Below are positions 10,113-39,346 of a stretch of DNA of 64,000 nt, piece after piece. Both the position numbers and the translations under genes were made by a program. The first letter of the stretch is position 1, and each line of letters opens with the position of its first letter. The notes beneath the pieces were generated by a model, which saw nothing but the letters and a program-made list of their open reading frames with translations, ran no database searches and was not told the DNA's origin. This stretch comes from Octopus sinensis (taxonomy: Eukaryota): assembly GCF_006345805.1 (NCBI RefSeq), contig NC_043006.1, positions 94,178,001 to 94,242,000 of the forward strand, read 5' to 3'.

Positions 10113-10390
10113 TATATATATCTAGAATCTATATATACTATATATATATATATCTATATATATATATATAATTAATCAATATAGGGTGGCCAAAAAAATT
10201 TTGGAGAATTTTTTTGCCACCAGCGGCCTAGTGGGAAAAAATAAATAGTCATAGACCATTTTTAAGTTCAACTCAACAATCAAGGAACGGCCATAATAGA
10301 CCATTCACCCACTAGAAATAACGCCAAGCTTCAACCGCAAATAAAAATCAATCCGTAAACAGGAGAAAATTTAAAAAACATTTACCCTGT

Positions 10391-10494
10391 AATCTTATAC
10401 GATGCACCGTTTCATCTGCTGTTTAATGGCAAACTAACCTGATTAAATTAAATCAGCCATCTTCCATAGGCCCTCAGATTCTTCAGTAAGAAAT
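10391..10494 (-). ncRNA. Hammerhead ribozyme, family A minus copy
   Basis: Reverse complement of the 10984-11090 motif with a few small indels. Confidence 0.75.
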
Positions 10495-10983
10495 AGCCCA
10501 AGTCGGAACAGATATTTACACGAGGCATTTCCGACCCTGCAAGGTAATATCTGACCTAAAATTTTCAAATCATCGCACTCGCGCCAAATTTATCGGCAGC
10601 AAATAAATATAAGCCGTCGATTCCATTACGGAATTAACCAGAAAATTCATAAATAATCAATATAGGGTGGCAAAAAAAATTTTGTAGAATTTTTTTGCCA
10701 CCAGCGGCCTAGTGGGAAAAATTAAATAGTCATAGACCATTTTTAAGGTTCAACATCAACAATCAAGGAACGGCCATAATAGGCCATTCACCCACTAGAA
10801 ATAACAGCCAAAGCTTCAACCGCAAATAAAAATCAATTCCGTAAACAGGAGAAAATTAAAAAAACATTTACCCTGTAATTTCTTATACGATGCACCGTTT
10901 CATCTGCTGTTTAATGGCAAACTAACCTGATTAAATTAATCAGGGTCGGAAATGCTCGTGTAATATCTGTTCCGACTTGGGCT

Positions 10984-11090
10984 ATTTCTTACTGAAGAAT
11001 CTGAGGGCCTATGGAAGATTGGCTTGATTTAATTTAATCAGGTTAGTTTGCCATTAAACAGCAGATGAAACGGTGCATCGTATAAGAAAT
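10984..11090 (+). ncRNA. Type-I hammerhead ribozyme with extended stem II (family A); predicted cleavage after A11082
   Basis: atttctta-CTGAAGA-atctg-[58-nt insert with hairpin]-cagat-GAAAC-ggtgcatc-GTA-taagaaat: all three stems pair and the core is canonical. Confidence 0.85.
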
Positions 11091-11466
11091 TAGGGTAAAT
11101 GTTTTTTAATTTTCTCCTGTTTACGGAATGATTTTTATTTGCGGTTGAAGCTTGGCTGTTATTTCTAGTGGGTGAATGGCCTATTATGGCCGTTCTTGAT
11201 TGTTGATGTTGAACTTAAAAATGGTCTATGACTATTTAATTTTTTCCCACTAGGCCGCTGGTGGCAAAAAAATTCTACAAAATTTTTTTTGCCACCCTAT
11301 ATTGATTAATTATGAATTTTCTGGTTAATTCCGTAATGGAATCGACGGCTTATATTTATTTGCTGCGATAAATTTGGCGCGAGTGCGATGATTTGAAAAT
11401 TTTAGGTCAGATATTACCTTGCAGGGTCGGAAATGCCTCGTGTAAATATCTGTTCCGACTTGGGCT

Positions 11467-11575
11467 ATTTCTTACTGAGGAATCTGAGGGCCTATGGAAG
11501 ATTGGCTTGATTTAATTTCAGGTTAGGTTAGTTTGCCATTAAACAGCAGATGAAACGGTGCATCGTATAAGAAAT
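11467..11575 (+). ncRNA. Hammerhead ribozyme, family A second plus copy; predicted cleavage after A11567
   Basis: Same motif with CTGAGGA core, 485 nt downstream of the first. Confidence 0.8.
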
Positions 11576-11883
11576 TACAGGGTAAATGTTTTTTAATTTT
11601 CTCCTGTTACGGAATTGATTTTTATTTGCAGTTGAAGCTTGGCTGTTATTTCTAGTGGGGAATGGCCTATTATGGCCGTTCCTTGTTGTTGATGTATATA
11701 ATATATATATATATATATAATATATATACCATATATATATATATGCATGCATGAATATATATATATATATACATGTATGCATTTTTGCAAGTATGTATGT
11801 ATATATATATATATACATACATACAGAAACATACATACAAATAAATGTATCTATATGAGATGCATTGTTCGTAAGTTTGTATG

Positions 11884-23984: not shown

Positions 23985-24287
23985 AGCTAAGTTCAACTCG
24001 TCTAAGTCGAAAGACGCCTGTTGTTATGTCCTGTTATATTTATATTCGTGTAACATCTTCCGTTTTTCTGTCCTTGTTTCGTATACACCCGATTCTTTCC
24101 AAGAAATCTAATGCTCGTAGCTTAGTTTTTCCTTGGGGCTGGCCAGATCGGAGCAATCTCAAGATTAATCAGCCGAAATTGCGAGGGTGATCCGGTTCTT
24201 GAATGATGATTAGAGGCTTCGAATGACCCGTCCGTGTTTTTTGTATCGTCTATTTGAATGTTTTGCGTTCTTGTCCCATTTTGTATT
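23985..24287 (+). mobile_element. Dispersed repeat 3' end abutting a microsatellite (related copies 30415-30580 minus, 40713-40830 minus)
   Basis: Shared atcagccgaaattg...gatccggttcttga.tga.gatt.gaggcttcgaatg.cccgtcc...cgttcttgtccca.tttgtatt. Confidence 0.6.
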
Positions 24288-24307
24288 ATATATATATATT
24301 ATATATA

Positions 24308-24963
24308 TATAACAATTTAGGAATGGCCTAAACAGGCCATTCGTCCACCAGAAAGAGCAGCCAGAACTCCAACCGCCAAGTAGTGTAATTCGGAAATAAG
24401 GTGAAAATTTAAAAACATTTACCCTAATTCATCTTTTATACGATGCATCGTTTCAGTGTCTTTAATGATAGACCAGCTTAATTAAATTAAATTAAGCTAG
24501 TCTACCATAGGTCACACTTCATCAGTAAAAGAAACCTGGGAGAGACGGACATACACGAGGCGACTGTATCAATGCCTCGGGAATGTCTGTCTTAAAATTT
24601 TCAAGACCAACGCATTCGCGCCAAACTTATCGGCAGCAAATATAAACTGCCGATTCCATCTCAGAATTAGTCAGAAAATTATCAATTAATCAATTTAGGG
24701 TAGCAAAAATTCAGTAAAAATTTATCGTTACCAGCGGCCTAGTGGAAAAGAGAAAATAGTCAAAGACTAAATATGTATAAAATAACAATTTAGGAATGGC
24801 CTAAACAGGCCATTCGTCCACAGAAAGAGCAGCCAGAACTCCAACCGCCAAGTAGTGTAATTCGGAAATAAGGTGAAAATTTAAAAACATTTACCCTAAT
24901 TCATCTTTTATACGATGCATCGTTTCAGTGTCTTAATGATAGACCAGCTTAATTAAATTAAAT
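24308..24963 (-). mobile_element. Retrozyme-like tandem unit (family B, ~472-474-bp period, about 1.4 copies) in (TA)n; diverged relative of family A
   Basis: ataacaatttaggaatggcc at 24309 and 24782; blocks shared with family A (aaaaacatttaccct, cgcgccaaa.ttatcggcagcaaat, ccagcggcctagtgg). Confidence 0.8.
24432..24532 (-). ncRNA. Type-I hammerhead ribozyme with extended stem II (family B); predicted cleavage after 24439
   Basis: Minus: tctttta-CTGATGA-agtgt-[19-bp hairpin]-acact-GAAAC-gatgcatc-GTA-taaaaga. Confidence 0.9.
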
Positions 24964-25214
24964 ATATATATATATAGTCAATCCAATCAAGAACAAGCAA
25001 GAAAAATACAAGAACGTGAGGACGTGGAACAAATACTGTGTTACTGGGCGTTCAGGAAAGGAAAGGAAAGAAAAGAAAGAGGGCTTCACGTTTCATCAGA
25101 AATATAGAAAAAGTCAAAATTAGGGAAGACGGAGAAAGAAAATCGCCAACGATACACACGCGGTCACATTTTGAAATATATATATATATATATATATATA
25201 ACCCTAACCCTTTT

Positions 25215-29490: not shown

Positions 29491-29576
29491 GTGGCTGAAG
29501 ATTGCTCGACATTTTAAAACTGATGTAATACTTACAGTGTTTAATAAAATGAAGTAGCATGAAACAATTGTACTAC
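29491..29576 (+). ncRNA. Type-I hammerhead with extended stem II (family C), in an element at about 29395-29612
   Basis: gtgg-CTGAAGA-ttgct-[insert]-agcat-GAAAC-aatt-GTA-ctac; first stem-II pair mismatched. Confidence 0.65.
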
Positions 29577-30814: not shown

Positions 30815-31056
30815 TATATATATAGTTAATCCAAACAAGAAAACACAAAAAAACACAACAACGCGAGGACGTGGAACAAATATAGTATTATTGGACGCTC
30901 AGGAAAGAAGGGAAGAAGGAGGGTGTAACGTTTCGAGCGGAGCTCTTCGTCGGAAACATAGGAGAAGGAAATATCCCGAGAAGGGAAGACAGAGGAAAAA
31001 AATCGACAACGGTATATATATACTCAAAAATAAGCAACAAGAATGATTCCGGTCAT

Positions 31057-31142
31057 TTGGTACAATTGTTTCATACTACAACATTTTATTAAACGCTGTA
31101 AATATTACAGCAGATTTAAGATGCTGAGTATTCTTCAGCCAA
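31057..31142 (-). ncRNA. Type-I hammerhead with extended stem II (family C), at the 3' end of an element at about 31020-31750
   Basis: Minus: ttgg-CTGAAGA-atact-[...gctgtaa(tat)ttacagc...]-agtat-GAAAC-aatt-GTA-ccaa. Confidence 0.8.
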
Positions 31143-32563
31143 TTTATATAGGTTTTCCAATAATATAAAAGCTTTCAAATCAAGTAGTAACATTTTAGGG
31201 AAGGTAAATATACAGATAAAGATGTAGATATAAATTTAGGGACATATGCGGTTGTGTAGTTCAGATGCTGACTGACCAAAACTCTGCTTGCAACAGACTG
31301 CTATAAGAATTTTTTAGTTTTAGGAATGAGGGTAAGGGAAGGTTTTAGAATACCATAAAAGGAATTCAAGTTGGTTGTAGAAAGAGGAGGAATTCAGAAT
31401 GCCATAAAAGAATTCAGGTTGTCACTAAACAAAAAGCCAATTTTTTTATGTGGTGAGAAGAAAACTAGGTCAAGTGTCGAGAGGTCATTAAATTCTTTAC
31501 AAAGGGTAAGGGAAACAAAACTATCACTTATTTTTAGTAGGTATCGTATTTTATAACTGGGAGAATAGCTTTAAATTTTAAAACTAGATTAGATTTAGGG
31601 AAAGTTCCAAATTCAAGATTACAGTGAAGTTTTTCTAGTCATCTATGAAAAACTGGAATTGGGATTATCTTGCATACATTCCACAACTCGAACTTTTAAA
31701 TACTTTAAATAAAAAAATTTTTTAGTATTCCTATATTTTTCAAACTTTAACTTTTTAATATAATAATAATATGAAATATACTATATTAACCTTTAACATT
31801 CCCGGAAGGGAATAGGTGAAGAAAAAGTTCTTTCAAAGATAGGAGAATGCAAGAGGAGGTATGTGTGTGTGTAAGTGTGTATATGTGCGTGCGCGCAGGT
31901 CTGCGTGTGCGTGTGTGTGTATGTGTGCAATGATAACACGTGTGTGTGTGCGTGTGTGTGTGTGGTTGTGGCTGTTAATCTATGTGTGTGGTAGGGCTTA
32001 GTATTGTTTAAGGTCAAGGAAGAATGGATTAGGAGTGGCTCTTGTCTCTAAACCACCCATGTGGAAAAATGGTCAATGAAAGGTACTGATAGTTTGAAGT
32101 ATGTGTGTGTGTGCGTGTATGCATATGTATTGTGTGTGCGTTTTGTTTGTAGTGTGTGTGTGTGTGTGTGTGTGTATGCGTGTATTCGTGTGTGTATGCG
32201 TGTATTCGTGTGTGTATGCGTAGAGTTTGTGTGTGTGGCGAATAACTGCGCTATACTTTGTGTATGTGTGCGTGTGTTTGTATGTGCGTATACATATATG
32301 TATAATTGTGTGCGTGTATGTATGAGTGTGTGCCGTGTGTATGGGATGTATGTGTGGGTTCATTTGTGTGTGTGTGTCGTATGTGCGTGTAGTTGTGTGT
32401 GCGTGTATGTGTGCGTGTGTATGTGTGCGTGTGTATGCGTATGTGGGTGTACATACGTGTGTATATATATATATATATACACTCATTGCTATTTTCACCG
32501 TTTGAGAAGAGTATTAAGAATAATCTCGTTCGAGATTACAAACATCTTCGGCTAGTTTAACAT

Positions 32564-38772: not shown

Positions 38773-39191
38773 AGGCAGCGAGCTGGCAGAAACGTTAGAA
38801 CGCCGGGCGAAATGCTTAGCGGTATTTCGTCTGCCGTTACGTTGAGAGTTCAAATTCCGCCGAAGTCGACTTTGCCTTTCATCCTTTCGGGGTCGATAAA
38901 TTAAGTACCAGTTACGCACTGGGGGCGATATAATCGACTTAATCCGTCTGTCTGTCTTTGTTTGTCCCCTCTGTGTTTAGCCCCTTGTGGGTAGTAAAGA
39001 AGCAGGTATTTCGTCTGCCGTTGCGTTCTGAGTTCAAATTCCGCCGAGGTCGACTTTGCCTTTCATCCTTTCGGGGTCGATAAATTAATTACCAGTTACG
39101 CAATGGGGTCGATGTAATCGACTTAATCCGTTTGCCTGTCCTTGTTTGTCCCCTCTGTATTTAGCCCCTTGTGTGGGTAGTAAAGAAATAG
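38773..39191 (+). mobile_element. Deu/Nin-type SINE with tandem duplication of its 3' ~185 bp
   Basis: ggtatttcgtctgccgtt...ttagccccttgtgggtagtaaaga occurs at 38821-39001 and again at 39005-39190. Confidence 0.9.
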
Positions 39192-39346
39192 GTACTGTTG
39201 TTCATATTCTTGTTGCTGTTGTTGCTCGTGGTGGTGGTGGTGTGGTGGCGGTTCTCGAACTAGAAGGGCTACTTCCCTTTAAGACAGAAATTAAAATATT
39301 TCACAATAGATGATATCCTCAAAAGAAAATTTGGGGCACCTACCTA

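Follow-up and report, generated by a model that had tools for sequence, protein, structure and literature searches.

The minus strand of positions 24308 to 24963 in a 64,000-nucleotide stretch of Octopus sinensis DNA, which is referred to here as the window, carries a small retroelement built around a type I hammerhead motif, predicted to self-cleave, in which helix II is extended by a 19-bp hairpin. The element is almost certainly a non-LTR retrozyme with a Penelope-type insertion anatomy, and there is a strong probability that selection at the RNA level maintains the pairing of its hairpin. The best explanation of the whole, to which we attach moderate confidence, is that of a Penelope-type retroelement in which the hairpin caps loop 2 of the hammerhead, so that an RCC motif in the resulting internal loop can pair with a GGY motif outside helix I.

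This copy belongs to family B and consists of 1.39 monomers in a single arm, with its 3' end at a fixed point, terminus X, and its 5' side truncated inside the hairpin loop. It comprises one complete monomer of 472 bp (24308-24779, minus strand) and a partial upstream monomer of 184 nt (24780-24963, minus strand), which is 98.9% identical to 24308-24491, contains the 3' half of a second hammerhead and forms a direct repeat resembling a pseudo-LTR. A previous interpretation made from the letters of the window, the sequence-only reading, had given the period as about 472, and the partial second monomer indeed begins 472 bases on; elsewhere in the genome the monomer spacing of family B is 474-475. 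The GC content of the copy is 36% and its longest ATG frame covers 33 aa. At terminus X (24308-24342, minus strand) an 8-bp hairpin (24342-24321) precedes the CCUAAAUUG motif, after which comes the fixed 3' end; this hairpin, which displays a double change in the B2 subfamilies, is a candidate recognition element for the reverse transcriptase (RT). Terminus Y, a second copy of the terminal motif (24684-24699, minus strand), is internal here and serves as the end point of the other arm in two-armed insertions. The left flank is a (TA)n target (24284-24311), and past the copy lies another TA run, at about 24961-24978. The window additionally contains a family A insertion in (TA)n with three hammerheads (10168-11695), comprised of an inverted arm that ends at Y (10168-10939, minus strand) and a direct arm that ends at X (10941-11695, plus strand), with a longest ATG frame of 42 aa. 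Two other repeats were observed in the window, namely an inverted repeat at 776-1373 with 294-nt arms that are 99% complementary and lie 10 nt apart, and a 184-bp unit in two tandem copies at 38821-39194 with 91% matches.

Read 5' to 3' on the minus strand, the hammerhead of the complete monomer is preceded by GGU (24534-24536), the predicted pseudoknot partner of ACC, located in the 5' strand of helix I beyond its first stem. It continues with the helix I 5' strand (24526-24532), which forms 7 bp with the 3' strand at 24432-24438, and the core CUGAUGA (24519-24525). The 5' strand of helix II (24514-24518) pairs with 24455-24459, the first of these pairs being not conserved, and opens into an internal loop with a 5' strand GACCU (24509-24513; RCC motif at 24512-24510) and a 3' strand UAAAG (24460-24464). 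Beyond this loop stands the 19-bp extension hairpin (24465-24508), with arms at 24508-24490 and 24483-24465 and a 6-nt apical loop, UAAUUU, at 24489-24484. The motif is completed by GAAA, a palindromic helix III (CGAUGCAUCG) and GUA (24439-24454, minus strand), with the cut predicted after 24439.

The type I core, CUGANGA...GAAA...UH around a three-way junction, is present in the motif of families A and B, and helices I, II and III all form, with helix I open-ended. The six fixed core positions show no shared change and position N7 shows four, and the cut site is GUA or GUC across the A and B subfamilies. In a set of 30 haplotypes, helix I is 96.6% paired with four double-change pairs, helix II pairs 2-3 are fully paired with double changes, and helix III is 98.9% paired. 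The pair at 10.1-11.1 is A-U in 10 of these haplotypes, G-U in 1 and unpaired in 19; the usual G10.1-C11.1 is absent in A and B and present in groups C and D. Published accounts, which are cited throughout for the parts of each text available to us, describe this pair as highly conserved but not strictly required, with U-U cases on record (PMC3088659, PMC7229834). The canonical metazoan hammerhead has a helix I of 6 bp and a helix II of 4 bp with a small loop (PMC4209133), and the A/B motif lies outside these sizes, with a helix I of 7-8 bp and a helix II arm of 64-68 nt, though the canonical sizes describe the common form and are no requirement for membership. Rfam searches of the element recovered no hammerhead at E values up to 10, and none at the gathering score in five loci, where the short-helix motif of locus L218 was missed too; over the whole window they gave only microsatellite-driven miRNA matches among the 150 listed of 308. 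The helix II arm of the family B copy folds better than its shuffles (z -7.9; 0/200), and free minimum-energy folds of A and B did not produce the active hammerhead.

Families A and B are homologous along the entire monomer and 73% identical. From these two families the sequence-only reading had proposed compensatory covariation across the whole motif. The strings it quoted, including stem II AGUGU/ACACU, stem I UCUUUUA/UAAAAGA and the loop UAAUUU, are all present on the minus strand, and pairing is mostly kept, but the proposal was overstated for the hairpin of the two window copies: its 19 pairs comprise 10 that are unchanged, 7 with a one-sided change via G-U, 1 with a double change and 1 that is mismatched in A. 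Stem II displays four double changes in pairs 2-5 if the families are aligned by structure; in the sequence alignment, pairs 4-5 are offset by a 2-nt indel. Ten random changes leave at least 18 pairs in only 0.2-0.3% of simulations. The comparison of two families is by itself thin, because A versus B constitutes a single phylogenetic contrast. Collection of genomic copies of both families, a check that the same reading had called for, revealed that the pairing of the extension is kept across subfamilies, and this retention, together with folding on the ribozyme strand only, supports its idea that the stem II extension is under structural selection.

The sample behind this result encompassed 274 loci, equivalent to 199 distinct stretches and 445 motifs, and is biased toward intact motifs and contig C1. 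Changes were counted by parsimony on a tree of 219 colinear monomer windows from 82 insertions, drawn from 268 A/B windows of which the remainder crossed the inversion point, and the null was taken from the substitution spectrum outside the hairpin. On branches subtending at least two insertions, 16 of 19 hairpin changes keep pairing, against a null of 0.34-0.39 (p 7e-5; the null spans 0.24-0.39 when the array-shared and single-copy classes are taken in). Changes shared within one array behave similarly (8/10), while those found in a single copy, which include assembly errors, keep pairing at the null rate (10/34). Only one of the pairing-keeping changes is a direct double change, and five columns traverse three states through G-U. 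Breaking variants that spread to two insertions include an A-C at pair 8 and a U-C at pair 14, and shared events leading to G-U rather than A-C stand at 5 to 1 (p 0.11). Across the 30 haplotypes, which were picked from 71 listed and whose relatedness inflates the shuffle control, 95.4% of the hairpin cells pair, a value attained in 0 of 500 shuffles, with slid registers giving 25-47%; here 7 hairpin pairs are invariant, 8 have one-sided changes, 2 have double changes and 2 only break.

The internal loop below the hairpin is kept with its motif in all A and B subfamilies. The RCC on its 5' strand, which corresponds to the cct that the sequence-only reading had seen retained, is complementary to the GGY just outside helix I, and among the 362 of 379 A/B copies retaining both CC and GG, to which the scoring was limited, the R-Y position is G-C in 245, A-U in 112, G-U in 3 and mismatched in 2; by family, the pair is G-C in A and A-U in B. 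Counted from the core, the RCC starts at 9 nt in family A and at 7 nt in family B; the GGY is 10 nt out in the former and 7-9 nt in the latter, and both helix I and the RCC offset are longer in A than in B. In the constrained fold the RCC is unpaired, and weak pairs of helix I take up part of the GGY. The motif is absent from group C, despite the hairpin extension found there. The RCC/GGY pseudoknot is thus a prediction, as it comes from one independent double change between A and B, noticed post hoc, and little is added by CC and GG being invariant, since half of all columns are without a shared change; we put the chances of such a loop-loop pairing at about even. A tertiary contact had been among the roles envisaged for the extension by the sequence-only reading: the RCC and GGY lend this some support, but the predicted contact sits in the internal loop and not in the hairpin stem.

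Two further roles for the hairpin compete with that of a cap. In one, akin to the protein or RT recognition site raised by the sequence-only reading, it is a protein handle, whose stem displays a nearly invariant A/U-rich apical loop as a docking site for the RT of Penelope elements or for a host factor. The apical loop and the three pairs closing it have only 1 shared change in 12 columns, compared to a mean of 0.85 per column, and a protein-binding role may apply to this part; the arms of group C and other families also end in A/U-rich loops, and the extension is more constrained than the other hairpins of the monomer. However, the intact autonomous elements examined have a short helix II, which suggests that the RT needs no arm in cis, the fixed 3' ends X and Y sit 140-230 nt away from the hairpin, and both arm length and loop differ among families, making a handle rather unlikely as the main explanation. 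In the other, the hairpin is just one among a number of stems by which a circular RNA stays self-paired and stable, and stands in helix II by history with no special link to catalysis. Retrozyme circles have been reported to be highly self-paired (PMC7229834), double changes occur in 21 of 114 consensus pairs over the whole monomer, and the hairpin sequence diverges at the same pace as the rest. This is nonetheless an unlikely account, because shared changes keep pairing in 24 of 29 cases in the hairpin arm against 26 of 57 across seven predicted helices outside the ribozyme (p 0.001), although a stem rich in G-U holds its pairing more readily, and because the internal loop and its motif persist in all A and B subfamilies and the same arm design recurs in families that lack detectable sequence similarity. 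Helix I resembles the arm in this respect (10/11), and these helix-by-helix counts leave out stem II and the pseudoknot, for which A and B are out of register in the sequence alignment (0.52 and 0.75 of cells pair).

That the arm gives rise to a small regulatory RNA, another role raised from the sequence, is very improbable. The 64-68-nt arm is hairpin-shaped and yields weak sub-threshold matches to miRNA models, but these are far below the gathering scores (E 0.5-8.5), and the existence of thousands of mobile copies accounts for the persistence of the arm with no need of a host function. Moreover, conservation of the hairpin sequence does not exceed that of the remainder of the monomer, A and B being identical at 28 of 38 arm positions (74%) versus 309 of 401 outside (77%), and a microRNA precursor, for which a conserved arm is expected, was rejected on this ground. 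The covariation might also have arisen without any selection, via repair of a DNA inverted repeat or via A-to-I editing prior to reverse transcription, given that 7 of the 9 differences between A and B are G-U wobbles and that the element produces inversions. We consider this scarcely credible. Folding is strand-specific, with the family A hairpin folding on the ribozyme strand (z -4.4) but failing to do so on the opposite one (z -0.4), and the DNA inverted repeat was discarded as a candidate for this reason; editing as the source of G-U was likewise discarded, as A>G changes are not in excess on multi-insertion branches (38 A>G against 38 T>C outside the hairpin, 3 against 6 within it), and it cannot generate four of the seven wobble sites (G-C/G-U or C-G/U-G). 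Both processes are further at odds with single-copy changes breaking pairs at the null rate.

A search of the 2.72-Gb genome placed the window copies in a large assemblage. The exact A/B motif pattern has 4,101 matches, compared to 0 for the reversed pattern, and the best-matching copies of the families are 96-100% identical. Further A subfamilies account for 1,718 matches to a pattern built to avoid the two window copies, and B subfamilies that have a GUC site, together with compensation in helix III, for 866 (22 in the control); no families intermediate between A and B with that helix III were detected (6 matches versus 20 in the control, and 30 matches that were all A/B variants). Helix II covaries within families, at pair 5 in A (G-C/A-U) and pair 3 in B (U-A/C-G). 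B-type relatives were also found in contigs of sequence runs under four organism labels, though they are not independent, since the variant pattern matches a subfamily that also occurs in this genome; these runs were set aside as evidence for RNA because the tandem junction fits DNA equally well.

Group C, with monomers of about 600 bp, has 1,524 matches against 16 in the control and no blastn similarity to A or B. It shares the design of A and B: a helix II of 4 bp that shows double changes leads via a small internal loop to a long imperfect hairpin; the helices are of canonical size (6 bp and 4 bp), the internal loop occupies the usual position of loop 2, and its loci (L061-L090, L255-L274) contain the same divergent two-arm insertions with a tail. 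A looser pattern gave 1,507 matches versus 335 in the control, and several more long-armed families are discernible among these loci and in the window. On sequence grounds, the long-arm design is common to at least three distinct lineages. Family F is a separate family with its own tail, seen as hammerheads at 31051-31148 (minus strand) and 29495-29572 (plus strand) of the window with a helix II arm of about 59 nt, a CAAUUG helix III and a (TA)n-abutting end about 40-55 nt away; a first look suggests at least 1,732 candidates, and no adjoining RT-like frame was seen in 25 loci. Additional long-armed hammerhead families were noticed at L215 (5270-6360 and 5037), L216 (8916, minus strand), L278, L280, L284 and L295, and the one at L215 5270-6360 has the inverted two-ended form of A and B and a terminal motif resembling that of group C.

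The class of the element is evident from its insertions, which were counted where complete in the sampled families A, B and C. All 79 two-arm insertions are divergent, and 73 of them have the ends X and Y, one per arm (A 36/38, B 26/27, C 11/14); of 40 single arms, 39 terminate at X or Y, and one additional insertion has four arms. Arms range from 0.1 to 12.1 monomers. X and Y lie 85-110 nt apart and have a short motif in common, and the ends directly abut (TA)n. There is no LTR and no coding frame, and the GC content is 0.36. The monomer lengths of 474, 491 and 600 bp, the last being that of group C, are above the retrozyme range of 150-450 bp in PMC7229834 and inside the 51-972 bp of a 2026 preprint (10.64898/2026.07.22.740005). 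The tandem repeats with one type I hammerhead per unit are those of a non-LTR retrozyme, and the partial tandem with an inverted, 5'-truncated copy and a tail at one end is that of a non-autonomous Penelope-like element (PLE); the RT + GIY-YIG frame of autonomous forms is lacking in A and B. We assign the element to the non-LTR retrozymes with this anatomy since (TA)n, divergent tandem arms and two fixed 3' ends together amount to a Penelope-like configuration (10.64898/2026.07.22.740005 argues for non-LTR retrozymes being Penelope derivatives of a non-autonomous kind).

Intact elements with an RT and GIY-YIG frame of 781 aa are present in the genome, use the same (TA)n target and have two ends about 35 nt apart, in keeping with PMC8557442 Fig. 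2. Intact or near-intact RT frames with a C-terminal GIY-YIG (781 and 775 aa) were located in L215 (1221-4545), L216 (5245-7569, minus strand), L218 and L222; the L218 element carries a short-helix-II hammerhead, and short helix II motifs were found in the autonomous elements viewed. In the group of L215 and L162 a hammerhead-like motif with a U3-A8 core was seen by eye. The search for a partner scored 150 of 5,029 and 150 of 12,076 PLE candidates, and none with an A/B-like end emerged in 80 loci (50 + 30, from two PLE groups). PLE fragments lying beside the arrays were dismissed as partners, being separate insertions where viewed (L241). In L024 and L019, family A and B insertions adjoin in one (TA)n region, which fits a shared target. 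In the 3' region of the second PLE group (L340, L348, L349, L351-L355, L360) we observed a cassette of about 230 bp in many copies, composed of a group-C-like X end in reverse and a Y end in forward orientation within a microsatellite-like region, with a right end resembling the family A terminus; it seems to be a small insertion hitchhiking with a PLE subfamily.

The mechanism that we favour would begin with transcription of the arrays, from which the hammerheads, possibly as dimers formed through the palindromic helix III, would cut out monomers that would then circularise. Within these hammerheads the 19-bp hairpin would act as the cap that turns loop 2 into an internal loop, and the RCC-GGY pairing would replace the usual contact of loops 1 and 2. 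A Penelope-like RT/GIY-YIG protein, acting in trans, could nick (TA)n; priming from one DNA strand at X and from the opposite strand at Y, with copying round the circle, would give two arms of up to 12 monomers. These steps follow a proposal in PMC4209133, which envisages cleavage of array transcripts, ligation to circles and reverse transcription of more than unit length. We suggest that changes in spreading lineages keep the hairpin paired and single-copy changes do not because selection operates at the RNA step. Two observations agree with this scheme. Private variants recur in every sampled monomer of both arms in 7 of 16 two-arm insertions and are missing in 9, though a uniform parent array would equally give private variants common to both arms. 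Family B 5' ends fall 1-14 nt past the predicted cut in 9 of 75 cases (p 4e-4), an enrichment that is absent in A (5/119) and C (2/46). Family B 5' ends also fall inside the hairpin (15/75, p 0.005; 7/119 in A), which we read as pausing of the RT at the stronger B stem with no function; the hairpin as a hot spot for inversion or truncation was rejected, as the excess is found in B and not in A. In a Xenopus study, cleavage was missing in 8 of the 9 retrozyme dimers tested (10.64898/2026.07.22.740005).

The class of element, which the sequence-only reading did not name, is already known, and the long-armed helix II architecture is an unusual variant. Non-LTR retrozymes of coral, mussel and axolotl are likewise non-coding tandem monomers of a few hundred bp with low GC; each monomer holds one type I hammerhead, and they occur in thousands of copies alongside Penelope-like elements (PMC7229834, bioRxiv 10.64898/2026.07.22.740005). 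In these animals, however, helix II has 4 bp and a small loop in place of the 64-68-nt arm, and circular RNA and cleavage were demonstrated; the octopus element, known here from sequence alone, has monomers of 474-491 bp (600 in group C), regular divergent two-arm insertions and two fixed ends. Penelope-like elements display partial tandems, an inverted copy, a tail and a (TA)n bias (PMC8557442 Fig. 2), and those bearing an endonuclease share with the element the partial tandems, inverted 5'-truncated copy, tail, (TA)n and a hammerhead with a palindromic helix III near the 3' end (PMC8557442 Fig. 2, PMC4209133). They differ in having the RT/GIY-YIG frame and a tail of 30-40 nt, compared to multi-monomer arms and a tail of 85-110 nt here, and their helix II is given as 6-8 bp at most (PMC8557442, PMC4209133).

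A mirror precedent is offered by the type III hammerheads found in HDV-like circles of toad and termite and in Drosophila pseudoobscura. Their helix I bears an internal loop and an extra hairpin, and GCCR in that loop pairs with YGGC in loop II (PMC7936874 section 3.1). They too have a capped internal loop whose GCC pairs with GGC on the other helix, but the extension is on helix I of type III with a partner in a terminal loop, as opposed to helix II of type I with both motifs predicted to lie in internal loops, and the likeness noted is one of architecture. Pseudoknotted hammerheads, in which a Watson-Crick pseudoknot replaces the non-canonical contacts of loops 1 and 2, occur in all three topologies (PMC3088659); they are mostly prokaryotic or from phages, have a short helix II and were tested by mutation, whereas the pairing proposed here is predicted only. 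The literature searched, which included few subscription papers, contained no description of a type I hammerhead whose helix II has an internal loop capped by a hairpin; mussel hammerheads without the usual tertiary nucleotides (PMC7229834 Fig. S4) could bear on this novelty.

Genomic hammerhead counts may be low, since several thousand long-helix-II motifs are missed by Rfam and would fall outside short-spacer descriptors, which allow 7-17 nt between the core halves (PMC8557442), and statements that certain elements lack hammerheads may need care, as long-armed motifs go uncounted. More speculatively, and as a possibility that we entertain with considerable reserve, these families could represent a radiation of Penelope-dependent circular RNAs, with a selected helix II hairpin, two internal loops docked by a pseudoknot and an apical loop acting as a protein handle, in which each RNA circle offers two sequence-defined priming sites for rolling-circle reverse transcription in opposite directions over up to 12 rounds. 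The regular two-ended, divergent, multi-monomer insertions constitute a natural record of Penelope retrotransposition, and if this reading is true they would record the Penelope mechanism directly. An in vitro system for Penelope retrotransposition is still needed (PMC8557442), and on the same reading the element would provide a 474-nt template for in vitro tests of how Penelope tandem and inverted insertions and tails are made.
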